From IMG/VR virus record IMGVR_UViG_2905894795_000003: a stretch of 20,000 bases of DNA, one strand, 5' to 3'. The notes under the pieces were generated by a model. It did not search any database. It was not told the DNA's origin and was given only the letters and a program-made list of their open reading frames with translations. Origin of the DNA: an uncultured virus (IMG/VR IMGVR_UViG_2905894795_000003). Its lineage: Duplodnaviria; Heunggongvirae; Uroviricota; Caudoviricetes. Position numbers and translations under genes: made by a program. This document shows, piece after piece, positions 4,472 through 20,000 of this stretch (position 1 is its first letter; each line of letters opens with the position of its first letter).

Positions 4472-4481
4472 TTATCTGCCC

Positions 4482-4712
4482 TCAGTCCTGGCTGCGAGTA
4501 GACAGCGCAGCCTCAAGCTGCTTCAGCAACGCGGATTTTGCATCCCACACCGATTTGCCATAAAGACCGTCAGCCTGATGAATCTCGCCATCTTCAGTCT
4601 GCACCATCAGATAATCGCTCTGAACATACACACGAACGATGGTATCGGCTCGTACCGCATTGCGGTCGGTAAGTAAGATGAACTGGTTAACCGGCTTAAC
4701 AACGTCAGCCAT
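4482..4712 (-). CDS. Hypothetical 76-aa protein between terS and terL
   Basis: ATG at 4712 overlaps the terS end and the ORF fills the gap to terL. Confidence 0.7.
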   Translation of the reverse strand: MADVVKPVNQFILLTDRNAVRADTIVRVYVQSDYLMVQTEDGEIHQADGLYGKSVWDAKSALLKQLEAALSTRSQD

Positions 4713-5223
4713 ATTTTTTCTCCACGATTTGCTGAAACTCCGGCAGGACATCAAGAAAGCGCACCATCAGCGCCGGATGTCTGTCACTGAGAAAGGCCGC
4801 GAAATCCTCAACCACGCCAGCGGCCACCATCAGGCGGTCGGTCTGGGGCAGAATGCGACGGCTTGCGGCCATCATCTTGTTAAAGCCGTCCTGAAGCCCG
4901 ACCAGGCGCTTTGTATATTCATCAATAGGAAGCGCTGTACCGTCCGGGCTTCCGCGCATTTTGCGCAGCTCAGCGATGGCGAACTGGTTGTGCTCCAGGT
5001 ATTCCAGCATCAGCGCCGTGGCGATTTCCTCCGGCGCACCGGAACCGAGGCGACGCGCAGCACGCAACCTGTCCCAGTCGTCGCCGGTATCCCGTGCCTC
5101 TCTGCGCCAGCGGATCACGGTGGCCACGCCTACACCGTGCATCGGCCCCAGCACCTCCGGGGCCATGCCCTGTGTGATGTAGTCACGGCGGACCGCATCA
5201 CGCACTTCTTTGCCATGCGCCAT
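4705..5223 (-). CDS. DUF1804 / Mu gp27-like terminase small subunit
   Basis: N-terminal HTH-like MAHGKEVRDAVRRDY...ATVIRWRREA...GDDWDRLRAA; lies upstream of terL. Confidence 0.85.
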   Translation of the reverse strand: MAHGKEVRDAVRRDYITQGMAPEVLGPMHGVGVATVIRWRREARDTGDDWDRLRAARRLGSGAPEEIATALMLEYLEHNQFAIAELRKMRGSPDGTALPIDEYTKRLVGLQDGFNKMMAASRRILPQTDRLMVAAGVVEDFAAFLSDRHPALMVRFLDVLPEFQQIVEKKYG

Positions 5224-5486
5224 CAGTGACTACCCGACCCGCTGATCAGCCTGTCAATCCGCTCAGTCGTGCGCTCCATTGACGACTTGATCTCCGCCAG
5301 CATCGACATAATCTGCTCCTGATCGCGAACGGCGTCGGACTTGAGCTGATACAGCTCGCGCATGCGGATATTCTCTTTACGAAGCTCATCAATAGCGCCG
5401 TGCAGACTTTTAACCCAGTAGGTCAGGCCGCTGGCAACCAGGCCGAAAAAAAGCGTCTGTAGCGTGTCCAATGAAATTAACTCCAT
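5223..5486 (-). CDS. Membrane-anchored coiled-coil protein (Mu gp26-like position)
   Basis: One N-terminal hydrophobic segment plus a heptad-rich C-terminus; TGATG coupling to terS. Confidence 0.75.
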   Translation of the reverse strand: MELISLDTLQTLFFGLVASGLTYWVKSLHGAIDELRKENIRMRELYQLKSDAVRDQEQIMSMLAEIKSSMERTTERIDRLISGSGSH

Positions 5487-5487
5487 G

Positions 5488-5808
5488 TTATTTGCCCTCC
5501 GGCCAGAAAAACGCTTCCAGCGCTTTCAGCTTCGCCGCATTCGCCTGACACCAGGCACCATAGTCTGCTGCGTGACGTAACAGCGCTGCCGGAGGCAGGC
5601 CAGACGCCTTGCCCGCATACGCGGACGGGGCGGGCGGCATCGTGCCGACCGAGACCATCGCGCGCGGCGGCTTCATCGCCTGCTCAATGACCGGCGCGGG
5701 CGTCACCGTTACCGTATCCAAGGGCGTTTTCGTAGAGCTGCACCCCGTGAGGACCAAGCCCGTTAAAACCACAGCCGCCAGCCTTACCCGCTGTCGCATT
5801 GTCATCAC
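5488..5808 (-). CDS. Outer-membrane spanin (Rz1-like lipoprotein)
   Basis: Signal peptide with lipobox LTGC and a Pro-rich body; overlaps the i-spanin 3' end in another frame; true start may be 5799. Confidence 0.8.
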   Translation of the reverse strand: MMTMRQRVRLAAVVLTGLVLTGCSSTKTPLDTVTVTPAPVIEQAMKPPRAMVSVGTMPPAPSAYAGKASGLPPAALLRHAADYGAWCQANAAKLKALEAFFWPEGK

Positions 5809-6154
5809 TGATCGCCTTATCTATCTGCGTGCCGAGCAGCAGCCTGGCCTGCGCCAGCTCAGCCGTTTTATCCGCCAGCGTGGCCGCGAGCGCATCCGCC
5901 CGAGACTGCTGTGCCTGTTCACTCTGGCGCGCCTTAAGCAGCGCGGCGGTTGTCGCTTCACTGATACGCTGGCGCTCGTCAGAACGGGCTTTTTTCTCGC
6001 TGGCCAGCGCCACGTCACCGGCGCTTTTCGCCGCTGCGAAACCCGACTGATAACCGCTGTGACGCAGCCACCACACACTACCCGCAAGTACCGCGCACAG
6101 CAGTACACCCGGTAAAATCCGCGTTAAACACCACTTAATCAGCGCCGCGCTCAT
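5684..6154 (-). CDS. Inner-membrane spanin (Rz-like)
   Basis: Start MSAALIKW at 6154 after GAGG; N-terminal TM followed by an Ala/Gln-rich coiled coil. Confidence 0.82.
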   Translation of the reverse strand: MSAALIKWCLTRILPGVLLCAVLAGSVWWLRHSGYQSGFAAAKSAGDVALASEKKARSDERQRISEATTAALLKARQSEQAQQSRADALAATLADKTAELAQARLLLGTQIDKAISDDNATAGKAGGCGFNGLGPHGVQLYENALGYGNGDARAGH

Positions 6155-6431
6155 CCGGCTTACCTCTTGGCTTACCAGCTTCAGGTGGATCATCGTCCGC
6201 CTTGCTGTCGTGATATTTCTGGACCCCGGCATGCGCAACCCATGCACCGACGTAGACCGCCAGTGCGTCCACCGGCGCATGATTCCAGTACGCACACATC
6301 AGGACCACCGCCGAACTGACCAGCAGGGCCGTCAGCGTGGTGGCGTCCGTTGTTGAAAGCTGCCCCTGACGGTTGGAGACCAACTCCGGCAGGCGTTTAA
6401 GAAAGCCCATTGCAATGACCCCGCGCCACAT
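6135..6431 (-). CDS. Putative holin (DUF2644-like)
   Basis: GQLSTT motif, two hydrophobic segments and a charged C-tail, within the lysis cassette; start at 6431 or 6410. Confidence 0.65.
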   Translation of the reverse strand: MWRGVIAMGFLKRLPELVSNRQGQLSTTDATTLTALLVSSAVVLMCAYWNHAPVDALAVYVGAWVAHAGVQKYHDSKADDDPPEAGKPRGKPDERGAD

Positions 6432-6637
6432 CAGCGCCTCAGCCTGCGTTCCAGGCGGCAAAGCGCCTCTGGAATAAATGTCACGTACACAAGCAGGGTC
6501 GCCAATACCACTAATGAAACTGACCAGCTAAAACCGGCAGCAAAATGCCACATAAGCAAGGTAAAGGCCGAATAACCCACATTCAGAAACCACATATCAA
6601 GCCAGAGTTGCCAGCAGGCTTTCAGGTAGTCTTTCAT
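6431..6637 (-). CDS. Small two-TM membrane protein in the lysis cassette
   Basis: ATG overlaps the endolysin stop (ATGA); MKDYLKACW...RLERRLRR. Confidence 0.7.
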   Translation of the reverse strand: MKDYLKACWQLWLDMWFLNVGYSAFTLLMWHFAAGFSWSVSLVVLATLLVYVTFIPEALCRLERRLRR

Positions 6638-7023
6638 GCCGGATACGCTGCAAAAGGAAGCTGGAAATGCGCACCATCTTTGAGCGTGGTCCAGCTGCCG
6701 CCCCATTCAACAGGGATAGAGAGATCGGCAGACGCCTGTTTAAAGGCGATATTAATCTGTTCATAGAGGGACCATTCCCATGACACCTGACCGCCCACAT
6801 ACGCCACGACGTCTACTGCATGGCCGGTAAGATGACGGCTGTTCAGCGTCTGACTATGGCCACCGGCGACCATCTCTTTCTGGCGTTCGGCGGTGCGTAA
6901 GCCTTCGGTGATGCCGAAATCAACAGATGAAACCTCAAGCGCATGGCGAACCAGCTTCACCAGGTCAGGATGCACACCCTGCATATTGTTTTCGCTGCGC
7001 TGACTGAATTTGAAAGAAGACAT
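6634..7023 (-). CDS. Endolysin, peptidase M15 (L-Ala-D-Glu endopeptidase type)
   Basis: EGLRTAERQ, SRHLTGHAVD, WGGSW and DGAHFQL motifs. Confidence 0.93.
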   Translation of the reverse strand: MSSFKFSQRSENNMQGVHPDLVKLVRHALEVSSVDFGITEGLRTAERQKEMVAGGHSQTLNSRHLTGHAVDVVAYVGGQVSWEWSLYEQINIAFKQASADLSIPVEWGGSWTTLKDGAHFQLPFAAYPA

Positions 7024-7057
7024 AAAAAACCCTCACGTTGCTGTGAGGGTCATTGTG
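7024..7057 (-). promoter_or_regulatory. Terminator-like hairpin sequestering the endolysin RBS, overlapped by a probable late promoter -10 (CACAAT)
   Basis: - strand reads CACAAT-G-ACCCTCAC-AGCAAC-GTGAGGGT-TTTTT-ATG. Confidence 0.6.
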
Positions 7058-7105
7058 CGGGGATGATAAAGGAGGCCGTACTTACAGGGGTGGAGTGGCA
7101 GCACA

Positions 7106-7555
7106 TCAGAACAGGCGCTGCTGAACCTGCGGCTCGTCGGGCCTGTTGCGCTCTGCCAGCAGGTGCCACGCCCAGCTGTCGCCGAACCCGTAGCGCGGCG
7201 CGGTCAGCATCAGGGCAATACTCAGCGACTTACCCTCATTCACCAGCGCATCGACGTCGCTGTAAAAGCAGCGGTTGCGGTACTCACGCAGCGCCGTGGC
7301 ACAGCGGGGAATGACCAGCGTACTGTCGCCCCCGAAGTGCTGCATCATTTTCTGGGTATTTTCCTCCCCAATCGTTTCACGCAGCAGCGCCAGACGCGGC
7401 TCGCCGTGGCTCATGATGCCGCGCCCGACCGGGAAACGGGCACCGCCGAACCGCTCGACCAGCTTTTGCGTCGCCTCAAATCCGATCACGCTGGCCAGCT
7501 CGCGCGCGGTATCCGGCAGCAGGGATGCCATCGACTCCAGATCAAACCCGCTCAT
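7106..7555 (-). CDS. mor: Mor/C-family transcription activator
   Basis: LLPDTARELASVIGFEATQKLVERFGG...FGGDSTLVIPRC..ALREYRNR; located between gemA and the lysis genes. Confidence 0.88.
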   Translation of the reverse strand: MSGFDLESMASLLPDTARELASVIGFEATQKLVERFGGARFPVGRGIMSHGEPRLALLRETIGEENTQKMMQHFGGDSTLVIPRCATALREYRNRCFYSDVDALVNEGKSLSIALMLTAPRYGFGDSWAWHLLAERNRPDEPQVQQRLF

Positions 7556-7953
7556 TACAGCCTCCCGTGACGTTTCGCGTCAACAATCAGCATCTGCATC
7601 ACCTGGCGAACCTGATCGTCGTTCAGCCACTCAACCGGCTTTTTCTCACCCAGCATGCGCTCAACCACGCCATCCAGATAGCTCCACGGGCGACCGGCCT
7701 CGGCCAGCAGCGCCTCAATCTTTGACAGCATACCTTTACGCCCTGACGCCACACGCGGACGGCGGCCATGTGACGCAGACGGCGTAAAGCCCGCGCTGCG
7801 CATCCAGGCGACGACCTTTTCAAGTTCAGCCTCTGAGCACGCACTGGCCGAACGGTGCCCGGTCAGTCGCGCCAGCACGTCGCGATAGGTTTCATCGTCC
7901 CAGCCGAGCCGCGACTTGCCGGTATGGACGATGCGAATAAGGTTACGCTTCAT
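7555..7953 (-). CDS. gemA: GemA / Mu gp16 (DUF1018) family protein
   Basis: Start MKRNLIRIVHTGKSRLGWDDETYRDVL after GAGG; KIEALLAE..RPWSY motif. Confidence 0.9.
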   Translation of the reverse strand: MKRNLIRIVHTGKSRLGWDDETYRDVLARLTGHRSASACSEAELEKVVAWMRSAGFTPSASHGRRPRVASGRKGMLSKIEALLAEAGRPWSYLDGVVERMLGEKKPVEWLNDDQVRQVMQMLIVDAKRHGRL

Positions 7954-7998
7954 AGGGAGCACCTCAAACGAAGGAGAAAAACAGGAAGCCCGTAAACG

Positions 7999-8025
7999 AA
8001 AAAAGCCCCTCAATGAGGGGCTTTT
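7999..8025 (-). terminator. Intrinsic terminator, probably bidirectional
   Basis: AAAAGCCCCTC-AAT-GAGGGGCTTTT inverted repeat with a T6 tail on the - strand. Confidence 0.8.
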
Positions 8026-8068
8026 AAGGGCTGATTCAAATTGTCACACCAGTACTGCAGTGGGTGAC

Positions 8069-8097
8069 ATTGGATCACGGTCGAAATTGATTGTCAA
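8069..8097 (-). promoter_or_regulatory. Possible sigma70 promoter
   Basis: TTGACA (8097-8092), 17-bp spacer ending in TGA, then TCCAAT (weak -10 with extended TG). Confidence 0.45.
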
Positions 8098-8135
8098 CAA
8101 TATTACGTAACACCTGAAATATTTGGTGTACAACC

Positions 8136-8543
8136 CTACTTACAAGGATACATTCTCCTTAGAGTATTTGAGTAAACTGCAGCCACATCCAGTTTCATGT
8201 CTGGGTTTTCGCCAGCAAGATACAGCTCAATAAATTGGTTAACCAATTTATCGTTCATTAATAATGTGTCGGGTACACAAGCGTAGGGTTTAAAGCTCTT
8301 ATCCTCCCTGTGGATTACTACATCACTCATCCTCGAATAGCCTTCACCTTCTGCAACACCCTCCAAATAGAAAACTAAAGCCACTTTAGCTGACTGATTA
8401 TCTTTATTATTAATATCATAGGCCTTGCTCCTTATATCTACATATTTTTCCAATGTCATTGCAGAGACCGCATGGAGACTTAGACTCATTAAAGCCAAAC
8501 TAATAAAGACACTTCTAAAAACTGTTTTTCTCATAAGCTTCAT
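8136..8543 (-). CDS. Secreted moron protein, Rap1a/Tai-like
   Basis: Sec signal peptide; Y..GVAEG...C.P...YL...P...A....L...YPC pattern; visibly AT-richer than its neighbours. Confidence 0.65.
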   Translation of the reverse strand: MKLMRKTVFRSVFISLALMSLSLHAVSAMTLEKYVDIRSKAYDINNKDNQSAKVALVFYLEGVAEGEGYSRMSDVVIHREDKSFKPYACVPDTLLMNDKLVNQFIELYLAGENPDMKLDVAAVYSNTLRRMYPCK

Positions 8544-8566
8544 CTCGAAAATTCACTTTTAATACC

Positions 8567-8851
8567 TCATACAGGTATCTCTAGGCTGTCATCATGTTTT
8601 AATAATCTGCCATCTACTGGCAACCACCGCACAACGTACTGCGAAATATCCCGCCCGGTATTGCGACAAATCATGCCAGCGTAATCAACATCCAGATAAG
8701 CCCAGACGAGCTTTGGATAACCCTGTTTCTGCAATTCTTCGCTTACCTCGCACACCGCGCAGATTGCCTTACCTGCGCCGGTTTCATAGGCCGCACTCAG
8801 CACGTCAGTGGGGATATCACCATTCCCCTCAACCCATTTATAACTTTTCAC
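8567..8851 (-). CDS. Hypothetical phage protein
   Basis: GTG start overlapping the upstream stop; 94 aa. Confidence 0.75.
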   Translation of the reverse strand: MKSYKWVEGNGDIPTDVLSAAYETGAGKAICAVCEVSEELQKQGYPKLVWAYLDVDYAGMICRNTGRDISQYVVRWLPVDGRLLKHDDSLEIPV

Positions 8852-9066
8852 TTTCCACCCCCCAATGAATAAGTAATTTTCGCTATACCAATGATGCTTA
8901 CTGAAAGTGTCATTAACCGGAGCGCATCAATCATGCGCTGCATTTCGGTATCACTGACACGCTCCAAATCTATCCCCAGCAAGGCCGCAACAGCGTCCAA
9001 CACATAGTCACGCAGGGCATCTTCAGGCGACCAAATCATTGATTTGTGGTCATTTGCAGAATTCAT
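8848..9066 (-). CDS. Hypothetical phage protein with a C-terminal hydrophobic segment
   Basis: ATGA overlap with the upstream gene; 72 aa. Confidence 0.7.
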   Translation of the reverse strand: MNSANDHKSMIWSPEDALRDYVLDAVAALLGIDLERVSDTEMQRMIDALRLMTLSVSIIGIAKITYSLGGGK

Positions 9067-9281
9067 ACAAATTTAAACCTCTTTTTAAACCGCTCAGCAG
9101 CCCGCCTCATTTCTGATTGTGCAGACCTTTTATAAATACGGTGACCGCGATTATCCCAGCACAGCCAGCGGGACACTTCCGGCAGGCTGCGGCGTTCTTC
9201 TACCGTGCCGCCATCATTCAGGTGGTACACACGACGATCACCGCCGTCATAGTGCTCACAGCCCGTCACGCACAGGTACAT
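9063..9281 (-). CDS. Hypothetical phage protein
   Basis: Start MYLCVTGCEH after GGAGG; basic C-terminus. Confidence 0.75.
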   Translation of the reverse strand: MYLCVTGCEHYDGGDRRVYHLNDGGTVEERRSLPEVSRWLCWDNRGHRIYKRSAQSEMRRAAERFKKRFKFV

Positions 9282-9564
9282 CGCGCACCTCCGAACCACT
9301 GAAAGCCGTGCCACAGAACGGACAGAATCGCATCATTATCGCCGTATCGCTTTTAGTCTGACGGGTTTCAGGCTCTCCATTCTTGCGCCTGCGGTAGTAG
9401 CGAAAGCGGTATTTCAGGGAAACCGGCGCATGATCGCCCGCACTCATCACCCATACGGCATTTTCAAAACCCGACTCACCCATTTCAGCCAAGTCAGAAC
9501 CGATTACGTCGCGAATCTGTTTATCGCAGGCCTCAGCGACCTTATCGAAACAATTACAGGCCAT
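9256..9564 (-). CDS. Putative Zn-binding protein (CxC...CPFCG)
   Basis: MACNCFDK...RFCPFCG; GGAGG upstream. Confidence 0.8.
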   Translation of the reverse strand: MACNCFDKVAEACDKQIRDVIGSDLAEMGESGFENAVWVMSAGDHAPVSLKYRFRYYRRRKNGEPETRQTKSDTAIMMRFCPFCGTAFSGSEVRDVPVRDGL

Positions 9565-9748
9565 CACACGCCTCCATTTCATTAATGCGCACAAAGTCAT
9601 TAAACGTGGTTTCGCAAAAGTGGCATTTCACAACGACCATCAATTGCTGCGGGTCATACATTTCAGGCATAACTTTCAGTTCAAGCACTGCCGTACGCTC
9701 ACAACAGGGGCAGGCAGAATCGAGAAGAACATTTTCAGGATTAATCAT
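9554..9748 (-). CDS. Small Zn-ribbon protein (CPCC...CHFC)
   Basis: MINPENVLL start after AAGGTG; two Cys clusters. Confidence 0.75.
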   Translation of the reverse strand: MINPENVLLDSACPCCERTAVLELKVMPEMYDPQQLMVVVKCHFCETTFNDFVRINEMEACDGL

Positions 9749-9752
9749 CACC

Positions 9753-10100
9753 TTATGCCCCTTTACCAGCGCCGGTGCGGAGTTGACAAAGTTTGACCGC
9801 TGACTCATTTGCGAGGTCATCTTCTGTTTTTAGTGTTGGCTCCGTAATGTCGCCTTCCTCACGCTCAATTACCCACCGACCAAATGCTGTTATGTGCCGT
9901 ATTGAATGCGGCCCTTTAGACGCTAAACCCAGCTCAACAAGACGGCTCATTGCATCCTTGCCAATGTCATATCCTTCGCCGTCATCGCAGGTCTCATTAA
10001 ATCTCAGCAAGGCTTTCAGGTCTGGATCCTGGATTTTAGGCCCAGGGCTTAATCGGTTACTCAATTCACTTTCCATTACATTTTCAGGATTAACTCTCAT
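9753..10100 (-). CDS. Hypothetical phage protein, possibly winged-helix
   Basis: Start MRVNPENV after GAGG; RLVELGL...ITAFG resembles a wHTH wing. Confidence 0.72.
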   Translation of the reverse strand: MRVNPENVMESELSNRLSPGPKIQDPDLKALLRFNETCDDGEGYDIGKDAMSRLVELGLASKGPHSIRHITAFGRWVIEREEGDITEPTLKTEDDLANESAVKLCQLRTGAGKGA

Positions 10101-10110
10101 ATCTGACCTC

Positions 10111-10323
10111 TCATTTGCCCTTGCGGCAAAATTCGCAAAATTCATCCAGAATCACACAAGCACCACAAAGAAGGGCACCAACCCAAGCGACAGGCCAGAA
10201 CACAGTTATAAACAAGGGGTCGGGAAAGCCGCTCCCATCGAAGATATAGCGTGCCGCCACCGCAAGCGTGAGCAACCCCACCGCCAGGTAACCAATTACA
10301 AATAAAAGAACTGCCATATTCAT
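10111..10323 (-). CDS. Small two-TM membrane protein
   Basis: Hydrophobic; contains FWPVAW; GAGG RBS. Confidence 0.75.
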   Translation of the reverse strand: MNMAVLLFVIGYLAVGLLTLAVAARYIFDGSGFPDPLFITVFWPVAWVGALLCGACVILDEFCEFCRKGK

Positions 10324-10344
10324 TAATAACCTCTTAGCGAATTT

Positions 10345-10376
10345 TGGCGTGAGCAGTCCCCTGACGGTTCACGCCA
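10345..10376. other. Intergenic hairpin
   Basis: TGGCGTGA...TCACGCCA arms with an inner GTC/GAC stem. Confidence 0.6.
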
Positions 10377-10406
10377 TATTTAAATGATGATTAATTGCGG
10401 TTTAAA

Positions 10407-10610
10407 TCAGACTACTTTTGCATCAACCGGCGTCAGTGAATCCACATTCGCGAAATAAGGCTCATGACTTATTTCAACAACAGTCGATGACTTCAAATCA
10501 CGCGCGACATCCTTCGTTTTCACCATATCGCCACCTCTGAGAAACTTATGAGGCTGATAGATAAAGTGACTGCCCACCGAATACAGCGCGTTAAACTCGT
10601 CAGCCCTCAC
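10407..10610 (-). CDS. Hypothetical Mu-like early protein
   Basis: GTG start immediately after the upstream stop; 67 aa. Confidence 0.75.
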   Translation of the reverse strand: MRADEFNALYSVGSHFIYQPHKFLRGGDMVKTKDVARDLKSSTVVEISHEPYFANVDSLTPVDAKVV

Positions 10611-10823
10611 TTATTTATTCCCCCATTTCAGCTCGCTACCACGCAGACAGTAAGCCCGCCGGTGCATTGCCCATTTACGCTGGTGCGCCTCACACGGTGA
10701 GATTTGCGCCTTTGCCCAAAGTTCTGCCGCATCACCATAACGGCAGGCTCGCTCAGCCCTGACCGCGCCAATGGCATAACGCGCATACTGGTTAACATGA
10801 TTCACGCTGGACGGATTCTGCAT
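10611..10823 (-). CDS. ANR-family (AraC negative regulator-like) protein
   Basis: A.RAER..RY..AA.LW.KA...WA..R.AYC pattern. Confidence 0.75.
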   Translation of the reverse strand: MQNPSSVNHVNQYARYAIGAVRAERACRYGDAAELWAKAQISPCEAHQRKWAMHRRAYCLRGSELKWGNK

Positions 10824-10824
10824 A

Positions 10825-11349
10825 TCAGGCTCCTGCAGTCTGCTCAAACGGCGTAACAGCGAAGTCCTCGATACCGCTGCGGACCGTTATACCCGCTACA
10901 CCCTCAACAGCTTTAGGTTCATTGAGGATGGCGTCTTTGTTAATTTCTTCCTTCGTGCGGATGAAGCGGTCCATACCCAGTCGGCGCAGCGTTTCCAGCA
11001 CGCTATCCACACCACGCACCGCGACTGATGGCGGACGATTACGCCACTCGACCTTGCCGGTGATCAGACTGGCCGTCTTGGTCTTGCCGTTCTGCGTCAG
11101 CTCATCACGATGCGCCTCACACCAGCCCTGAATCCCTTTGCTCAGGGTTTCAATATCCTTTTTAAGCACCTCCAGTGCTGGTGCATGCTGCTCGGTGATT
11201 TTCCCGATTGCGTCGTTCATTTCGCCTTCGGTACGCGTCAGCTCGCGCTGCAGGTCACCCAGCTTTTTAATATCCCCGATCACATCTTCTTTGCACTGCG
11301 GAACGTAGACCGCCGCAACGGCTTTAATGCGCTTTGGTTTAGTTGCCAT
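10825..11349 (-). CDS. gam: Mu Gam-like host-nuclease inhibitor
   Basis: WCEAHRDELT..GKTKTASLITGKVEWRNRPPSV and FIRTKEEINKDAIL. Confidence 0.93.
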   Translation of the reverse strand: MATKPKRIKAVAAVYVPQCKEDVIGDIKKLGDLQRELTRTEGEMNDAIGKITEQHAPALEVLKKDIETLSKGIQGWCEAHRDELTQNGKTKTASLITGKVEWRNRPPSVAVRGVDSVLETLRRLGMDRFIRTKEEINKDAILNEPKAVEGVAGITVRSGIEDFAVTPFEQTAGA

Positions 11350-11599
11350 AATTATTCACTCCTTTAACGCCAAATTTTTCTATGCAAGCCCATGTGCAAT
11401 GCTCCATCAGCCGCGCCCCAAACTCATGTAACTCGTCCCGAACATCTTCTATGGCCGTTCCGCCTGTAACCTGGTAAATGACTTTGCCGGCCTCATCACG
11501 CCCCATCTTCACCGAGACATTAACCAGCCACCCATTAAGCGAATCATCACTAACGACGTCCGCTGATTGCTGCTTATCCGACATAATGACTTTCTCCAT
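11339..11599 (-). CDS. Hypothetical phage protein
   Basis: Overlaps both neighbours; start at 11599 or 11584. Confidence 0.65.
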   Translation of the reverse strand: MEKVIMSDKQQSADVVSDDSLNGWLVNVSVKMGRDEAGKVIYQVTGGTAIEDVRDELHEFGARLMEHCTWACIEKFGVKGVNNYGN

Positions 11600-11783
11600 T
11601 AATACATTTTGCTTTCAGATGCACCTGATTAAACTGCGCCGCCAGGGCCATCGCATAACTCACAGTACTGGTGGCAATATTCATTTCAGACACGGTGTGA
11701 TTATTGGGATCGACTTTGATTTCCGGGTTAACCACAAAACCCGACTCACCTAACTTAACGTCAATGAATATTCGAACCGTCAT
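11574..11783 (-). CDS. Hypothetical phage protein
   Basis: Start MTVRIFIDVK after GAGG. Confidence 0.7.
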   Translation of the reverse strand: MTVRIFIDVKLGESGFVVNPEIKVDPNNHTVSEMNIATSTVSYAMALAAQFNQVHLKAKCINGESHYVG

Positions 11784-11997
11784 TTTCAGCCTCGCGTTTC
11801 CGACTCTCAGTGCAGGCAGGGCAACCACACCTGGTTTGCATCGCTCCGCCAGCGCGCCGGGCCACAGCCGACCTGATAACCCCGATAATCATGTCCATGT
11901 CCGCCTCCTCACGATAAGTGCGCTCGCCAGTCCCTTTAATATCAAACTCCATTCGGTCACCATGCTCAGTAATGACCACTTCAAGTTTTGCCGCCAT
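11761..11997 (-). CDS. Hypothetical phage protein with C-terminal CGCPAC
   Basis: Start MAAKLEV two bases after the upstream stop. Confidence 0.72.
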   Translation of the reverse strand: MAAKLEVVITEHGDRMEFDIKGTGERTYREEADMDMIIGVIRSAVARRAGGAMQTRCGCPACTESRKREAENDGSNIH

Positions 11998-11999
11998 AA

Positions 12000-12230
12000 T
12001 TACCCCCAGATAACCGTACAACCCTGAATAACCGATGTAAGCACCCGCTGCCGTACACCATTCACAACTTCCAGCACCTCGAACACTGAGCAGGAGACGC
12101 CACCTGCAGGTGGAATAGCCCGTATAACTGGCACAACATGATTTTTCTCAAACCCGATAATCCGGCCACCCTGAGCACAGATTGCCGATAGCGCCCGCGA
12201 ACGGCGGCAGTTAATAACCTGTTTTTCCAT
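12000..12230 (-). CDS. Hypothetical Mu-like early protein
   Basis: Start MEKQVIN; ends GCTVIWG; tightly packed in the operon. Confidence 0.75.
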   Translation of the reverse strand: MEKQVINCRRSRALSAICAQGGRIIGFEKNHVVPVIRAIPPAGGVSCSVFEVLEVVNGVRQRVLTSVIQGCTVIWG

Positions 12231-12232
12231 GA

Positions 12233-12736
12233 TTAACCCCTGAGTTCCTGAATGCATTTATCCAGCTTTTTAAGCATCGCCATCTGTTCGACGTGCGCTT
12301 CCAGCAAGGCCGAGAGAATCTTCTCGAACTGATTATTTTGCGTTTTTGCGCGGCGCAACCGGCGACAACTGCGTGCCGTTCTGCGCATCTCACGCCACAG
12401 CGAATTCTCACTACGAATGGCAGACCTGCAGCGGCAATTGTCTGGAATGGCTGGGAATTCACCCATCATCGGGTAATGAGCAGACCGGCGTGTGCGTCCG
12501 TGCAGAGCACGCTCGATCCGGCCTTTCTCTGCAGGTTTCATAGGTGGCAAGGCTGATTGTGATGCGGGTACATACGCAGCCTCACAATAAAATTTGCCAT
12601 GCCAGTACACATCGACACGACTACTGGATAATCCGCAAATAACATCCACATACCGACCATCAAGAGACGCCAGTGAAGGGTGAAAGTAATCACGTTTATT
12701 ACTTTCCACGAAACCGCGTTTAACTTGAACCTTCAT
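12233..12736 (-). CDS. Protein with a Mu-transposase C-terminal-like domain and a basic tail
   Basis: N-terminal ~55 aa align by eye to the C-terminal beta-barrel region of the phage's own transposase; AAGGA RBS. Confidence 0.72.
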   Translation of the reverse strand: MKVQVKRGFVESNKRDYFHPSLASLDGRYVDVICGLSSSRVDVYWHGKFYCEAAYVPASQSALPPMKPAEKGRIERALHGRTRRSAHYPMMGEFPAIPDNCRCRSAIRSENSLWREMRRTARSCRRLRRAKTQNNQFEKILSALLEAHVEQMAMLKKLDKCIQELRG

Positions 12737-12775
12737 ACTATTTTCCTTATTTAATTAGACTGTGTATTTCAGAAC

Positions 12776-13192
12776 TTAATTTATTGATGCGTGACGTCCA
12801 AAAGCACTGGCGCAATCCCTGATTACCCATTCACGGCGACCTTCAGGGTAAATACGTTCAGCCCATACCTGCCTGTTGCGAAGCTCTTCTCTTGCCGCCA
12901 GCAATATCTGTCGGAACTGCTGGCGCGAGGTGATGCAGCCCCAGTGAACCACCCGCATTTCACTTTCCCACTTATCTACATTCCAGTTATGACGACCAAG
13001 CCCCCTGATTGCATCAGGCAGCCCACGGTGGTCGCGCATAAGCTGATAAGAGTCGACGGTCACGTAGGGCAGCAGTTCATCATTGCGGCGGGCGCGATAA
13101 ATGCAGATATATTTGTCAATCATTAACGGTGAGTGGTGACGTTCAGAAATACGATTCAGCGCGTCAGTTTCTTTTTTAACCAGAGTTTTCAT
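12776..13192 (-). CDS. Hypothetical phage protein
   Basis: 138-aa ORF with a GGGG RBS, bounded by a repeated 39-bp leader. Confidence 0.75.
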   Translation of the reverse strand: MKTLVKKETDALNRISERHHSPLMIDKYICIYRARRNDELLPYVTVDSYQLMRDHRGLPDAIRGLGRHNWNVDKWESEMRVVHWGCITSRQQFRQILLAAREELRNRQVWAERIYPEGRREWVIRDCASAFGRHASIN

Positions 13193-13236
13193 GCTGTTTT
13201 CCCCACATAATTAATCTGAATATTTCAGGGTGATAT

Positions 13237-14163
13237 TTAAAAGAAAGTTTTTTGCTTAATTAACATCTTCCCGTATTTCTCAATAACCAGAGGTGATACA
13301 GGCAGATTCCGCGTCTTACTGGCGCGAATCACTGACCGCGCCAGCTTGTACATGCGGCGATAATTCCCTCCCGACTCTTTTCTGAATGCCGCTAAAACCT
13401 CATCCGTGAGCACATAATCAGGCAGTCCGCCTTTGAGAATATTGGTCAGAATGTCGTTAAAGTCGGACTCTTCACTCAGTTGCTTCATATCATCCAGATC
13501 GAGCGCAAGACTGACGCGGCTATACAGCTGCTCGTATTCCCCTCTGGACCCCATCAGATTGAGCAACAGACGCGGCATGCCCGCCAGTAACAGGCCGCAG
13601 TGTGCGCAGTCCTGAATGCGCCGCATAACCTCCAGCGCACGATAGGGCAGCAGTTCCGCCTCATCGATCATCACAATCCAGCCTGTCCCCTGAAGCGCCT
13701 CTATGCACCGCTCACTGAGTTCATGGATTGTGCCGCTGGTCTTCTTCACCCGTAGTTTGATGCACAGCTCCTGCAGCAGCACTTTGGCGGTGTAACCCGG
13801 ATCGGCCTCAATCAGTATCGCCGCGCTGTCGCGCAGGGCGTACTCTCTCAGCGCCATACTTTTACCTATACCGGCAGCGCCATAAATCACGCCGATATCA
13901 CAGTCAGAATGGGTAATGTCGATAATTTCCAGCACCGTTTTTGCCAGCGTGGTTGGCACAAATTCCACATCACCATGCAGACGCTTCGCCTCACGAAACA
14001 AAAAATCACGTAATTTAGCTTCGATAGTGCTGATATTGCCCTTATAGGTGCCACTCAGATATTGCGATACGGTTGCTGTACTTAAATTCGATTTAGCGGC
14101 GACCTGTTTCTGGGTGTAGCCGCTCCCCTCCATAAACTGGATAACATTTTCTTTAATGCTCAT
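13237..14163 (-). CDS. B: MuB-like transposition AAA+ ATPase
   Basis: N-terminal HTH, Walker A GAAGIGKS, Walker B MIDEAE, QLYSRV. Confidence 0.95.
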   Translation of the reverse strand: MSIKENVIQFMEGSGYTQKQVAAKSNLSTATVSQYLSGTYKGNISTIEAKLRDFLFREAKRLHGDVEFVPTTLAKTVLEIIDITHSDCDIGVIYGAAGIGKSMALREYALRDSAAILIEADPGYTAKVLLQELCIKLRVKKTSGTIHELSERCIEALQGTGWIVMIDEAELLPYRALEVMRRIQDCAHCGLLLAGMPRLLLNLMGSRGEYEQLYSRVSLALDLDDMKQLSEESDFNDILTNILKGGLPDYVLTDEVLAAFRKESGGNYRRMYKLARSVIRASKTRNLPVSPLVIEKYGKMLIKQKTFF

Positions 14164-14175
14164 TTAAATTACCTT

Positions 14176-16212
14176 TTAATAATTTCCGGCTTTTTTAGCG
14201 GCGAACTTTTCCTGACTGGCGAAAATATAAATCTCTTCCTCCTGCTCAATCGGCTCCGGCGCAGCAAACATGCTAATATCCAGCGGCTCGCGGTGCTCGA
14301 TGGCGGGCCGCAGGGAGTCTTTCGCATCCTGTATCACCGCCTGACCGCGCTTAATCTGACGCTGGGCACGTTCGTTAAGTGCTTTCTCAACCCGCGTTAA
14401 CGGAACAGGTGCGTTTGTATTTCCGTTCCAGATGGCCGTACAGACGAACGTGCCATCCAGCCTGCGGATATAAACTTCTTTAGCATCCAGAGGATTAAAG
14501 GCGACACGCACTTTTTCCTGGTCAACCTCTATCAGCTCTCTAGCGTAGTAATTATTCGTACCCAGCTGAATCCAGCCGCGTGCCGCTGTGCGGGTTTCCT
14601 CCGGCAGGAACATATCGTGCAGCTCGTCCGCCGTCAGATACTCAATATCGTCACCCTCTGTTTCAAGAGCGTGCCTGCGGTATGCCAGGGGTGACAGGTG
14701 CTTACCATTCACCTTTGGCAGCTCACTATGCTCATGAGACGTGTTATAGGCGTCGATCTCCGCCTGGATGGCCACCGTCAGTGCCTGCCAGTCTGGTATC
14801 AGCCCCAGCGTCCGCTTTTGCTCGGTGGTCAGCTCTTTACCCTGGCGCAGAGCGTTGGTCAGACTGACCATTTTTTTACCCATAACCCGCTGATGCTCAG
14901 GATCAACGTTATGGCCATTGTAAGTGGCGAACTGCCGTGCGATAGCAATCGGCACCACACCATTAAGACGCTCAATAATCCCGCGCGCCTGCGGGTTGCC
15001 CGGAATACCGGTCATGTGGTTTATGCCCATGCGGGGAAATATCCCGGTGATATCGGCATCGAGCATATTATTTTTTTCACCGCCGCCATTATCGGAATAT
15101 ACAAACAACGGTTTACCGTATTTCTCCATGCCGTGACGGTAAGCCTCCGCTACCGCAAAACGGTTCTCTGATAAAGACAGGCTCCACCCGACAATTACGC
15201 GTGTCCGACCATCAATAACCAGCGTCAGCTCCGGCGTGAACGGACGGTTGTAAACCGGGTGCAGCACCTTCATATCCAGCGACTTACCATCCGCGATCCA
15301 GATGCCATTTACCGGCATCACTGACCAGTCGCGCTTGCTGTAGACGTCATACGCTCTGGCGGCAGAACCACTGACCCGACCCTGCATGCGTTTATAAAGC
15401 GGCTCTTTCTTCAGCATGCGCCGCACAATGTCGTACGAGGGCATGACCGCCAGCACAGCAGGCTGATCGTGATATTGATCTTCCCACCACTTTTTGAATT
15501 TACGCCACGTCGCCTTAATCGAATCACCCGTGGGCGTGCCGTAATAAGACTTGAACGCTATCCACCAGGCACAATCATCAGGCTGCAGCTTTTTGGGCTG
15601 GCCCGGAGCCAGTAAAACCAGACGTTCCAGGCTGTTTGTGGTGGAGTGATAAAGCGAGTACCAGTCCTGCAGGCTGCGAACGCTGATACCGGCACGCTTT
15701 CCCTTACGGGCGTTGGCCAGTTCAGCCGCCTGCTGCAGGCGCTCAGACCTGAAACCCATGCGCGACTGCTCAGCGACATACTCAACCGCCCCCGTGCGGG
15801 TTGCTTTAATCCCCTCAAGCGAACGCAGGCGATCAACCTCCATCACCAGCACACACCGCGCATCAGCAATTCTGCGCTGTTTCTCAGTCAGCCGGTCCGT
15901 CTCACGCTTCGCCAGCGCCGGGCATTCCTGCATCAGAACCAGTTCCTGCTTAGCCTTGACCGCAACACTGACCGGCGCAACGACCCCGGCACCTTCTGAT
16001 GATTCAATCACCTGTTTCATCAGGCGCTGTTTCACCACTTCCCGAGCCGCATCCGGCAGACAGTCAATGTGATACTCAAAGGCTTTAGTACCTTCTCGGC
16101 GACGCACCAGCTCAGGCAAGCCCGCAGCACGCTTATTCAGAGTGAATCTCAGCCCCTGAAGCGTACCCGGCAAACCCGGCAGGCCCATTAACTCATTCAC
16201 TGTGACAAACAT
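14176..16212 (-). CDS. A: MuA-like DDE transposase
   Basis: N-terminal Mu-type HTH (EYHIDCLP); catalytic WIADG, YSDNGGG and GIIER all intact; 678 aa. Confidence 0.96.
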   Translation of the reverse strand: MFVTVNELMGLPGLPGTLQGLRFTLNKRAAGLPELVRRREGTKAFEYHIDCLPDAAREVVKQRLMKQVIESSEGAGVVAPVSVAVKAKQELVLMQECPALAKRETDRLTEKQRRIADARCVLVMEVDRLRSLEGIKATRTGAVEYVAEQSRMGFRSERLQQAAELANARKGKRAGISVRSLQDWYSLYHSTTNSLERLVLLAPGQPKKLQPDDCAWWIAFKSYYGTPTGDSIKATWRKFKKWWEDQYHDQPAVLAVMPSYDIVRRMLKKEPLYKRMQGRVSGSAARAYDVYSKRDWSVMPVNGIWIADGKSLDMKVLHPVYNRPFTPELTLVIDGRTRVIVGWSLSLSENRFAVAEAYRHGMEKYGKPLFVYSDNGGGEKNNMLDADITGIFPRMGINHMTGIPGNPQARGIIERLNGVVPIAIARQFATYNGHNVDPEHQRVMGKKMVSLTNALRQGKELTTEQKRTLGLIPDWQALTVAIQAEIDAYNTSHEHSELPKVNGKHLSPLAYRRHALETEGDDIEYLTADELHDMFLPEETRTAARGWIQLGTNNYYARELIEVDQEKVRVAFNPLDAKEVYIRRLDGTFVCTAIWNGNTNAPVPLTRVEKALNERAQRQIKRGQAVIQDAKDSLRPAIEHREPLDISMFAAPEPIEQEEEIYIFASQEKFAAKKAGNY

Positions 16213-16213
16213 A

Positions 16214-16465
16214 TCAGGAGACCTTGCGCATATAGCTTTCGGTTTTATACCGACTTGGCCAAATCAGCTCCGGCGACATTCCGAGAGCATCCGCAACAAT
16301 CTGTTGCTGAGGCTTCGACGGTGTACGCAAAACAGATTTCAATGAGCCAGCCGAATAACCATTTCTGCGACCAAGCTCAGCAAGTGACAGGCCACGCTTG
16401 TGCAGCTCACCTTTGATATCTTCAGGGTGCATATCGACATGCAGATCTTCTTTTCGATTCATCAT
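16214..16465 (-). CDS. ner: Ner-like transcriptional regulator
   Basis: DMHPEDIKGELHKRGLSLAELGR...IVADALGMSPELIWPSRY. Confidence 0.93.
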   Translation of the reverse strand: MMNRKEDLHVDMHPEDIKGELHKRGLSLAELGRRNGYSAGSLKSVLRTPSKPQQQIVADALGMSPELIWPSRYKTESYMRKVS

Positions 16466-16482
16466 TCAACTATCCTAAAAAG

Positions 16483-16630
16483 TTATCCCGAGGGATAAGC
16501 CACAGGTTGTCTCTTCGGATAAAAGTATTGATCCATATTTCCCTCATGTAAAGCAAATTTCCCACTTAGTTTTCGATTTTTGCCTTTAGTGACCTCAATT
16601 TGAATCAATGCATTTAAAATCAATCGGTTA
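16483..16630. promoter_or_regulatory. Lysis-lysogeny switch / enhancer region: palindrome, early promoter and IHF site
   Basis: TTATCCC-GA-GGGATAA 16483-16498; - strand TTTACA(16552-16547)-17 bp-AATACT(16529-16524); ATTTCCC at 16537 and 16557; IHF consensus AATCAATCGGTTA 16618-16630. Confidence 0.65.
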
Positions 16631-17243
16631 TGTGGAAAAGAAAATGGAATATCGGAAAGAAAACAAATTTGCTTTTGATGAGGACAGAAAAGAAAACTTC
16701 ATCCGGCGTTTAAAATCTGTAATTGGTGAGCGGAGCGTAAGAGCTGCTGCTAAGGAGTGGGGGCTATCATTCTCAACATTGAATAACTACATTACCCGTG
16801 GAACAGAACCATCATTCGTGGCTATGCAGGCTATAGCTTTTGCTGAGGATATTTCTCTTGATTGGCTAGCATTTGGCGCGAATGAATCAAATAAGAATCA
16901 ACCAGAGCGAAGCCTGATGCATGATAATAACTCCAACGACAAGAGCGGTAGTGTGGACAAAGAACATCTCCGCACCGCCTGGGCGACTGCGTTCGAATTT
17001 ATGGGGAAGGCTGAGGCTGAAGCTCTTTTGAAAATCATCATTAACGGCGGTGCACGTAGCATCATCAAGCTAGCCGAACATGATGCAACACTCGAAGAGG
17101 CCTTTATGCTACTCCCGCTGGAGTTAAAAGAAAGAGCAATAGATCTCATTGATGCGTATGCAGAAGCCAAAAAAGGGGCACCTGAAGAGGGTGATCTGAG
17201 CAACACTGCCAGCCCAGCATCTGATAAGAGGCAGGCTAGCTAA
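16608..17243 (+). CDS. Prophage repressor with an XRE/CI-type HTH (start may be 16644)
   Basis: SVRAAAKEWGLSFSTLNNYITRGTEPS...ISLDWLAFG; divergent from ner. Confidence 0.88.
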   Translation: MHLKSIGYVEKKMEYRKENKFAFDEDRKENFIRRLKSVIGERSVRAAAKEWGLSFSTLNNYITRGTEPSFVAMQAIAFAEDISLDWLAFGANESNKNQPERSLMHDNNSNDKSGSVDKEHLRTAWATAFEFMGKAEAEALLKIIINGGARSIIKLAEHDATLEEAFMLLPLELKERAIDLIDAYAEAKKGAPEEGDLSNTASPASDKRQAS

Positions 17244-17378
17244 GTGAGCATAGGCTGGTACTAATCAGTTTGTAATAGTTTCGGCTTATGCTTAATTTGA
17301 CTTAAGCCAAGCGTGTAAGCGATTTCTTAAAATCTGTTTAAACGCCTTTCAAACTCACTTAAACCACAATCATTCGAA

Positions 17379-19070: not shown

Positions 19071-19343
19071 ATTGACCAGGCAAGGCGCGTTATGCCATTT
19101 TCGGCATAAGCTGCGCAGAAATTTTTGGTTCTGATCGAGCGCGTAAGCGGGTTTACTCAGGGCATCAACTGATGCGGAGAACCTGACATGAAACAGAAAC
19201 TGATAGCCTGGTTTGAACAGCTGCTGAGTGGCCCTGTGACCAGTGAACGTGTACATGATATTAACGTCGAACTGCTGCTGCCACTGAGCCAGCTGTATGG
19301 ACTGGAATATTACCCGGCAGTGCATCGTTACCATGAAAGATAA
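19071..19343 (+). pseudogene. Probable decayed ORF; last 51 codons open (19188-19343)
   Basis: One frame reads IDQARRVMPFSA*AAQKFLVLIERVSGFTQGIN*CGEPDMKQKLIAWFEQLL...HRYHER*; GGAGA precedes ATG 19188; a terminator follows. Confidence 0.35.
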
Positions 19344-19366
19344 CGGTTGTTGTACTTTGACTGGTT

Positions 19367-19394
19367 AAAGGCCCGCTACTTTGCGGGCCTTTTT
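19367..19394 (+). terminator. Intrinsic terminator
   Basis: AAAGGCCCGC-TACTTT-GCGGGCC-TTTTT. Confidence 0.8.
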
Positions 19395-19516
19395 GCGTTC
19401 AGGGTGAAGCGAACGGTCATTTCGTTGCTCAGAAAGCGCAGGGATAAAGAGATGAGCTGGTTTCTCTGGCAGATAACTTCGTTTAATATCTGCGAGTTGT
19501 GTTCCAGCACTGCTTC

Positions 19517-19545
19517 TTGTCGTCCCGCATTAATCGCCGTATTCT
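19517..19545 (+). promoter_or_regulatory. Probable sigma70 promoter of the C4-symE unit
   Basis: TTGTCG-17 bp-TATTCT just before the first leader hairpin (19553-19570). Confidence 0.55.
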
Positions 19546-19645
19546 TTTTCTGCGCCTGCCAAATCAGGCGACGGAATTGGAACTCCGGTTAATGCACACT
19601 CGCGGCAACATTTTATTGTCGTGCGTCTGGCTACACCTCAATGGT

Positions 19646-19713
19646 GGGCTGGGCGAGGGCACCTTAGGGTGCGCCGGTTCAGTGTGCCCGGTAGTTCCAA
19701 CCTCGTTCAGTCT
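19646..19713 (+). ncRNA. C4/CI-type antisense RNA (P1 c4 / P4 CI-like, ash-associated)
   Basis: Stem 19646-58/19701-13, GCACC-TTAG-GGTGC hairpin, CCGG-loop-CCGG hairpin and single-stranded AGTTCCAA; complementary sites both upstream and downstream. Confidence 0.8.
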
Positions 19714-19772
19714 GCCACCCATGAGATTGGAACCTCAGGTGGCGGTTTAAAATGCATACTGGAGGCTTCCCC

Positions 19773-20000
19773 ATGAGCACGAACCTCGAACAACACCATT
19801 TGCCATCTGAAAGCGCGCCAACTAAAACACAACGTCGGTATACCATCGGCTATCAGCCCAAACGCGGCGATTGCACCACACCTGCAATACATCTGAGCGG
19901 GAAATGGCTTCGTGAAGCTGGATTTGAAACCGGAGCCCTTATTACGGTGAAAATTGAGCAGGGCTGTCTTGTGCTGGTTCCGGAAAATACTCAGCAATAG
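19773..20000 (+). CDS. symE: SymE-family type I toxin
   Basis: YTIGY...PAIHLSGKWLREAGFETGALITVKIEQGCLVL; GGAGG at 19761-19765 favours ATG 19773. Confidence 0.88.
   Translation: MSTNLEQHHLPSESAPTKTQRRYTIGYQPKRGDCTTPAIHLSGKWLREAGFETGALITVKIEQGCLVLVPENTQQ

Follow-up and report, generated by a model that had tools for sequence, protein, structure and literature searches.

A C4-type RNA precedes a symE-family gene on the same strand in a chromosomal cassette and very probably represses its translation

The stretch of DNA analysed here, called the window throughout, is the 20,000-nucleotide (nt) IMG/VR virus record IMGVR_UViG_2905894795_000003 (Caudoviricetes), and it ends with a short symE-family gene that is preceded, on the same strand, by a leader containing a C4 antisense RNA. 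Two segments of this RNA, a' and b', are complementary to a pair of sites upstream of it (a1/b1) and to a second pair downstream (a2/b2), the last of which touches the ribosome-binding site of symE (Table 1). The original prediction, made from the sequence of the window, described this arrangement as a complete C4/CI-type switch on the symE strand. It is borne out by the covariance models, by the pairing of the sites and by the compensatory changes across nine loci that are presented below. All listed motifs (a1, b1, b', a', a2, b2 and the Shine-Dalgarno sequence) lie where they had been placed, and the hairpin given as 19553-70 proved to be the first hairpin of the c4-a1b1 model.

Table 1. 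Features of the symE leader and gene in the window (positions of the whole stretch)
Feature	Position	Strand	Details
Terminator-like hairpin	19370..19394	+	GGCCCGC/GCGGGCC, then T5; read from sequence
Promoter (putative)	19516..19544	+	-35 TTGTCG 19516-21, 17-nt spacer, -10 TATTCT 19539-44
c4-a1b1 element	19539..19591	+	hairpin A 19552-71; hairpin B 19572-87; a1 TTGGAACT 19577-84 in hairpin B loop
b1 site	19594..19600	+	GCACACT; complementary to b'
C4 antisense RNA	19637..19722	+	Rfam RF01695
b'	19680-87	+	CAGTGTGC; hairpin loop of C4
a'	19693-700	+	AGTTCCAA; single-stranded linker of C4
Hairpin GAG/CTC	19723..19736	+	loop holds a2 TTGGAAC 19727-33
b2	19754-61	+	GCATACTG; one G:U against b'; last G = first G of Shine-Dalgarno
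Shine-Dalgarno	19761-65	+	GGAGG; 7 nt before ATG 19773
symE-family gene	19773..20000	+	75 amino acids; reading frame 19773-19997, stop 19998-20000; Pfam PF08845

A search with the Rfam C4 model, which had been proposed as a check, returned a plus-strand match over the full model length (positions 1-87 of 87), scoring 78.5 bits (cut-off 45, E 3.5e-14). The matched stretch folds into the three-helix shape of the model at -43.1 kcal/mol (z = -4.07; none of 200 shuffles was as stable), and its minimum-energy fold is the Rfam structure itself, a long closing stem with two hairpins. By all features examined the RNA belongs to the C4 family, except for its setting, as it is not embedded in a phage immunity operon.

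In the immI region of the phages P1 and P7, a c4 antisense RNA accompanied by a1/b1 and a2/b2 sites precedes icd and ant1/2 (Citron & Schuster 1990, cited in PMC8198154), and c4 blocks icd and ant expression according to passages of PMC8198154, while the C4 precursor is described as an RNase P substrate in a passage of PMC11143913. The window leader shares with immI the RNA family by Rfam, the order of the parts on one strand, the pairing at two sites, a small gene with the downstream site at its ribosome-binding site and a specificity set by the a/b sequences. In P1, RNase P cuts the 5' end of c4, and the stable RNA has a length of about 77 nt. The window leader differs from immI in that its first gene is of the SymE family instead of icd/ant, that no phage surrounds it and no C1-type repressor context was seen, and that the C4-symE cassette stands alone at different chromosomal sites.

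To find out how often a C4 RNA precedes symE, 55 SymE loci were collected from one-genome-per-species contigs by way of SymE and its close relatives, and scanned against Rfam with its gathering thresholds. In nine of the 55 loci C4 immediately precedes symE on the same strand; these nine belong to Yokenella (L009), Leminorella grimontii (L010 and L012), Atlantibacter (L011), Limnobaculum allomyrinae (L013 and L015), Candidatus Pantoea gossypiicola (L007), Kosakonia (L017) and an uncultured member of the Enterobacteriaceae (L035), and thus span six named genera in three families. The SymE protein of L007 is 100% identical to that of the window, and the nearest genome (G001) contains the 601 bases 19400-20000 at 100% identity.

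Across these nine loci b' and a' differ, in at least six combinations, and a1, b1, a2 and b2 vary to match them in each. In a nine-row alignment of the leaders (A2), in which the pairing brackets were placed after the sequences had been read, the a'-a2 helix is 100% paired with changes on both sides in five of seven pairs, and the b'-b2 helix is 92.1% paired with both-side changes in seven of nine. The upstream sites behave alike: a1-a' is 100% paired, b1-b' is 98.7% paired with both-side changes in seven of nine pairs, and both together show such changes in 12 of 16 pairs. Pairing is also kept in the c4-a1b1 helices 1 and 2 (98-100%), in the C4 helices 3-5 (95-100%, with seven pairs changed on both sides) and in the a2 hairpin (helix 8, 100%), whose loop lies 40 nt ahead of the symE start codon, and the GGAG following b2 is invariant in all nine loci. 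Over the whole structure 97.2% of the cells are paired against 88.1% in shuffles (0 of 500 reached the observed value); nine related sequences may beat shuffles by shared descent, and the stronger argument is provided by the number of distinct compensated pairs and by controls in which the partner was slid by one to three columns, where pairing falls to 35-44%. The potential for pairing and its conservation are therefore plain from the compared leaders.

Specificity follows the same pattern. When each C4 RNA was combined with each target, the cognate duplex was the most stable in seven of the nine rows, a non-cognate partner being slightly better in the rows of L017 and L035. Two copies within one genome differ at one site, in b for Leminorella and in a for Limnobaculum, and the other two C4 RNAs of G001 have loops unlike those of the window C4. 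Since the C4 loops vary and the target sites co-vary with them, C4 pairing at the symE ribosome site is under selection.

The surroundings of the cassette, on the other hand, are not shared. The flanking genes differ at every cassette and include transporters, peptidases, an AbiE pair, YicC, a RelA/SpoT-domain gene and an IS3 element. Around the eight loci other than that of the window, neither conserved neighbours nor phage immunity, antirepressor or replication genes were found; an integrase gene lies 1.5 kilobases (kb) off at one of them and an IS3 transposase at another. No gene downstream of symE is conserved across the cassettes. Given these varied flanks and the lack of anything conserved after symE, the unit consists of the leader and symE, about 0.5 kb. 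In the window, positions 1-17300 are a Mu-like prophage (portal, Gam, a MuB-like AAA protein, Mu transposase and a CI-type repressor at 16608-17243), which appears to be inserted in a MatE efflux gene that is intact in G001 (L003 6736-8169). This prophage is absent from G001, which has the cassette without it, and is not part of the C4-symE unit. A provirus record (G002) contains 93% of the sampled words of the window, though not 19400-20000.

The gene product has the SymE_toxin domain (Pfam PF08845) at residues 20-68, with 63.5 bits against a cut-off of 29. Close Pantoea relatives are 76-95% identical and stop directly after this domain, whereas the other C4-linked copies (85-103 amino acids) have a C-terminal helix-like tail; most C4-linked SymE proteins start with MATTPT or MATTLT. 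PADLOC gave no defence-system match for SymE and the five downstream proteins.

In E. coli, symE is controlled by SymR, a 77-nt RNA that is encoded on the opposite strand over the symE 5' end. The cassette resembles this type I pair in the Pfam family of the protein and in an RNA that covers the translation start region, and departs from it in that the RNA lies upstream on the same strand, has no sequence relation to SymR and uses two short sites, set apart from each other, for pairing, and in that the protein has 75 amino acids compared to 113 for E. coli SymE. The standing of the cassette at different sites and the selection on C4 pairing point to a same-strand C4 RNA that takes the place of the opposite-strand SymR. 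We therefore consider it likely that these loci are stand-alone chromosomal cassettes in which C4 represses symE at its ribosome site.

By analogy with c4-icd of P1/P7 and with CI of P4, such a cassette could work as follows. One promoter would drive a transcript that begins with a decoy a1/b1 segment of the IsrK/seqA type, continues with a tRNA-like antisense RNA of the C4/CI type and ends in the symE message. C4 would be cut from the leader, accumulate and bind a2/b2 of symE messages, and in this way the 30S subunit would be blocked from loading and SymE would be kept off. The a1/b1 segment might compete for the same C4 loops, set the threshold at which repression fails and act in cis on the unprocessed transcript; in the six loci with an IsrK terminator it could also be present as a short IsrK-like RNA. 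That C4 is processed, that it represses and in which direction a1/b1 acts is taken over here from the phage systems. To judge from its family, SymE would be a growth-inhibiting DNA-binding protein that condenses the nucleoid, as SymE does according to a passage of a review (PMC11894785) reporting Thompson et al. 2022.

The cassette would then be akin to a type I toxin-antitoxin pair, with an RNA antitoxin on the same strand and transcript as the toxin. In line with type I, an RNA complementary to the symE message near the translation start, with compensatory changes, is found computationally. Type III ToxIN likewise has its antitoxin RNA, ToxI, encoded ahead of the toxin gene on one strand and released by processing of the common transcript, and ToxI binds the toxin protein. 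The cassette has this layout in common with ToxIN, with the difference that C4 would bind the message of the toxin and not the protein.

Several observations weigh against this reading, and the first of them concern the upstream half of the leader. A strict consensus scan for promoters and terminators over 19300-20000 gave no site on either strand. The original prediction had placed a promoter ahead of the first hairpin, and its position is conserved (the TTG and TAT..T positions align across the nine C4-symE loci, and the -10 at 19539 is the first position of the c4-a1b1 match), but it is not recovered as a consensus promoter; conservation is what the putative promoter is based on, and this promoter is the weakest part of the layout. 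Under a permissive search, the a1/b1 element is likewise detected by its model (RF03163, E 1.3e-8) but with 40.1 bits it does not reach the cut-off of 46.7, and the isrK model (RF01394) matches 19552-19616 with 35.7 bits, under its cut-off of 50. The window has both of the IsrK-type hairpins but no IsrK terminator.

Among the nine loci, c4-a1b1 reaches its cut-off in three and isrK in six, the latter as a full match that includes a Rho-independent terminator between b1 and C4. An IsrK/seqA-type element preceding a C4/CI-type RNA, as in these six, is shared with isrK-orf45 (STnc1160)-anrP of Gifsy-1 in Salmonella and with seqA-CI-seqC of satellite P4, as far as passages of PMC4825925 describe them; the difference is that the window lacks the IsrK terminator and that the target is symE, not a leader reading frame coupled to antirepressor or replication genes. 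As P4 CI acts by termination (passages of PMC4825925), the terminator in six of the nine loci would suit a C4 that acts chiefly on transcription, by premature termination in the leader, the translational block being secondary. We judge this improbable, because b2 reaches into the Shine-Dalgarno sequence in nine of nine loci and because the window, L017 and L035 are without the terminator hairpin but keep all a/b sites. The transcriptional and translational modes are compatible.

The predicted folding of the leader as a whole is a further point. Its minimum-energy fold (-105 kcal/mol, z = -4.68) pairs a1/b1 with a'/b' in cis and leaves a2/b2 unpaired with a'/b', so that repression would need processing or action in trans. 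The pairing of the IsrK part with the C4 part in this fold recalls the inactive 'structure A' of Gifsy-1 isrK, in which a short IsrK RNA in trans turns translation on (passages of PMC4825925). Besides these pairings, the 3' strand of the C4 stem might form a helix with a downstream GGTGGCGG, placing a2 in a large loop; this helix is 90% paired with one covarying pair, and is unsupported alone because only this pair covaries and 42 of 500 shuffles equal it.

The pairing of C4 with symE is moreover confined to one SymE clade. Among 151 genomes sampled evenly across the order, 19 gave 38 C4 matches and 11 gave 45 SymE matches; one of the 38 and one of the 45 were adjacent, both being the G001 copy. 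In a maximum-likelihood tree of 45 SymE rows, from which 10 fragmentary rows were excluded, eight of the nine C4-linked proteins form one clade (support 82/88) together with L021 and with L008, a locus from which C4 is deleted; L017 adjoins this clade in an unresolved position. The neighbouring clade consists of L014, L016 and L018; two of these loci show weak SymR-like matches that cover the start of symE on the other strand, L014 with 35.7 bits and L016 with 38.9 (cut-off 61). One SymE clade has a C4 leader where its relatives have a SymR-type RNA.

These sister loci also raise the question whether an opposite-strand RNA of the SymR/IsrA type is the real repressor, with the C4 leader as a leftover of phage or satellite immunity that was fused by chance. 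Weak isrA-like matches are found on the minus strand inside symE, with 18.7 bits in the window and 27-34 bits in six of the eight other loci (cut-off 51), and in Rahnella (L053 1088-1216, minus strand) the start of a symE homologue is covered in antisense by a true, full isrA match of 102.7 bits. The weak matches, however, are far under the cut-off and fall on coding sequence that is common to symE homologues, and in the light of the true match antisense to such a homologue they probably reflect this shared coding sequence; the Salmonella island small RNA IsrA itself may be a SymR-like antitoxin RNA. SymR (RF01809), a separate copy of which would have spoken against the original prediction, has no match in the window at E<=10 or in the eight other C4-linked loci at E<=0.1, and the scan mentioned above found no promoter- or terminator-like site for an RNA of either strand. 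Moreover, a leftover would not keep 12 of 16 upstream and 12 of 16 downstream site pairs compensated over six genera. Repression by an opposite-strand RNA is on these grounds highly improbable.

The protein and one of its loci give the most serious reasons for caution about the toxin-antitoxin part of our reading. The NCBIfam model of endoribonuclease SymE (NF010128) matches with 51.5 bits against 132, over profile positions 11-73 of 113, which makes the window SymE a short form without the C-terminal part; it lacks the C-terminal helices of E. coli SymE, and it belongs to the SymE family of Pfam without being an equivalog of the E. coli protein. In L008, a syntenic locus of a metagenome-assembled Pantoea, 72 nt are missing between short repeats, GGTG(C/G)G, at 2328-2500 (window 19665-19745 in the alignment); this deletion has removed the C4 second hairpin through a2, and with it two thirds of C4, while the promoter, a1/b1, b2, the Shine-Dalgarno sequence and an intact symE of 73 amino acids are kept. 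The loss of C4 is evidently tolerated there, which makes the antitoxin reading weaker, for the short SymE of Pantoea at any rate: either C4 is dispensable in L008, or its SymE is harmless, or its promoter is silent. This locus argues against strict addiction.

The switch could accordingly be the same and yet guard no toxin, if the short SymE is a harmless or mild DNA-binding protein of the AbrB/MazE fold, whose expression is kept self-limiting and threshold-like without addiction or killing. The L008 deletion, the ending of the Pantoea proteins after the SymE domain and the NF010128 score are all in favour of this possibility. We nevertheless regard it as rather unlikely, as the Pantoea proteins are conserved and the switch is compensated even among close relatives, and as comparable RNA control guards a cell-harming icd in P1 and the antQ cascade in Gifsy-1 (passages of PMC8198154 and PMC4825925). 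The L008 deletion, moreover, is a single metagenome-assembled case, and contigs from RNA libraries with an L008-like symE start keep C4.

Among 24 runs listed, six RNA libraries had a small share of the stretch; four of these were aligned, all as contigs from close relatives, and their gaps, such as 19757-19830 in all four runs, carry no information. A metatranscriptome contig covers 19630-19752 with C4 intact and then runs into the L008-like symE start, so that C4, a2, b2 and the beginning of symE are joined in it, a transcriptome contig, 93% identical, covers 19477-19751, and two further contigs lie over the 3' part of symE. As signs of expression these contigs favour the reading, but they give no transcript ends, strand or level, and DNA carry-over is possible. 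Both leader contigs have an A at 19684, which turns b' into CAGTATGC, a perfect match to b2, and in the second one b1 has the matching changes. In the window 19684 is a G, for which b1 has the compensating C and b2 keeps a T, giving the G:U pair.

As to the origin of the leader, a megablast search of 19400-20000 against E. coli genomes gave nothing, and in distant mode the leader was found and symE was not. Strains of E. coli O145 have a leader (L062 3501-4458) that shares its a sites with the window, has a related b site and is 81% identical to 19531-19764; it precedes a 153-amino-acid protein without a Pfam family and an HTH_35 winged-helix protein, beside tssG and type VI secretion genes; this leader is unannotated in its record. 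The presence of the same leader before another gene indicates a portable module for which symE is one of several cargoes. Matches in phages cover the C4 region and carry the annotations 'immunity region', Rha and antirepressor. The best one, from phage phiP27 (37 nt at 82% identity), agrees with the window C4 in the a' loop but not in b', and the first gene of the phage after it starts with MATVPT, much like the MATTPT/MATTLT of C4-linked SymE, suggesting that the leader was joined to symE within the first codons. No phage with both loops of the window C4 was found, SymE-like genes occur in six phage records, none of them close, and none of 11 SymE-like loci from viral contigs matches the leader profile.

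The kinship with phage immunity leaders would also allow the cassettes to be RNA-keyed sensors, in which early transcripts of an incoming phage or satellite with matching a/b sites, as decoys of the IsrK/seqA type, soak up C4 and free SymE to condense the nucleoid and abort the infection. The a' loop shared with phiP27 would fit such a role, as would the short IsrK RNA that in Gifsy-1 switches on a gene behind a C4-type RNA (passages of PMC4825925); the different b' of phiP27 and the absence of the leader from the 11 viral-contig loci are against it. We regard the sensor role as very unlikely, and abortive infection as speculation. It is an equally faint prospect that the many a/b specificities, and the one-site difference between copies of the same genome, are the trace of an arms race, as they would be under the sensor view.

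In G001, the two other C4 copies sit within open reading frames (ORFs) that match Pfam Phage_ASH (PF10554), one of them fused to a Rha domain, as is usual for C4 in phages or satellites. Two Phage_ASH ORFs (L004 1310-1834 and L006 898-1746, minus strand) span the IsrK-C4 RNA region, and in L004 C4 corresponds to residues 64-93. For the window, an Ash-like frame that is broken while the pairing is intact had been noted, and this is what we find: the frame is present as a trace, reading MVGWARAP*, with tblastn giving short weak pieces in two frames, and the pairing is kept. It is interrupted by stops in four of the nine symE leaders. Part at least of the Ash family signal may be a translation of the conserved structured RNA.

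Upstream of the leader, the terminator-like hairpin is likely the terminator of a 51-amino-acid ORF (19188-19343) and the left limit of the unit; it is aligned only by the terminator part of some leader models and was not called by the consensus terminator scan. This ORF lies between a lactonase gene and the cassette and has no family match; its 3' end is conserved in L008, and the hairpin and T-run come next after the ORF. Between hairpin and promoter, at window 19470-19510, a conserved block (T)TGCGAG-N6-8-TTCCAG is found, which in L011-L035 lies about 45-110 nt upstream of the -35, with an inverted repeat next to it in several loci. The same block stands before the symE of Pantoea ananatis (L021 2282-2310), which has no C4 leader. 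The block could represent an operator, or else an element of an older promoter of symE. A LexA box (CTG-N10-CAG) was not seen in the aligned promoter regions by eye, without a scan. Downstream of symE, G001 contains an open frame of 1039 codons (L003 10398-13517) with six stretches of haemagglutinin repeats. As this frame lacks both a secretion domain and a proper start and is cut short at its end, we take it to be a CdiA-type remnant; it is absent from the syntenic L008. SymE genes have been noted within contact-dependent-inhibition or hecA loci of Proteus and Dickeya in passages of PMC11278526 and PMC8386352.

Two other settings of symE deserve mention. The Limnobaculum cassette L015 is bracketed by 34-nt inverted repeats, 88% complementary (1943-1976 and 2828-2861), which hint at cassette mobility; the second copy, L013, shares 881 base pairs with it at 90% identity and is missing the right repeat arm. 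In nine of the 55 loci, from Kluyvera, Citrobacter, Phytobacter and Enterobacter (L025, L031, L034, L038, L039, L040, L041, L044 and L049), a tRNA-Sec gene lies 1-2.3 kb upstream of symE, three of them with a second, weaker copy; these symE genes sit at the edges of selC islands.

In the open-access full text, no paper linking SymE with a C4-type RNA was found, most subscription-journal papers being outside this scope; the passages of open-access papers that name both SymE and IsrK treat them separately, and 'SymE' was not found in the accessible portions of the supplements of Weinberg et al. 2010 (PMC2864571). New is the combination of the C4 RNA and symE, each part being already known. If our reading is true, an IsrK-C4 immunity leader of phages has been reused outside phages to silence a potentially harmful host-borne gene, and the cassette would be the first type I-like pair, within the searches made, with an antitoxin cut from the leader of the toxin itself, which makes it of interest for research on RNA antitoxins and on phage-derived regulators. 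Among the nine natural cassettes there are six or more two-site 'keys' that all differ from one another, each with its fitting 'lock', which makes them a test set for the specificity of C4-type RNAs and a possible source of orthogonal translational repressors. For the SymE family it would mean that at least two unrelated RNA repressors serve it, the opposite-strand SymR and the same-strand C4, suggesting that RNA antitoxin modules may be swapped like cassettes.

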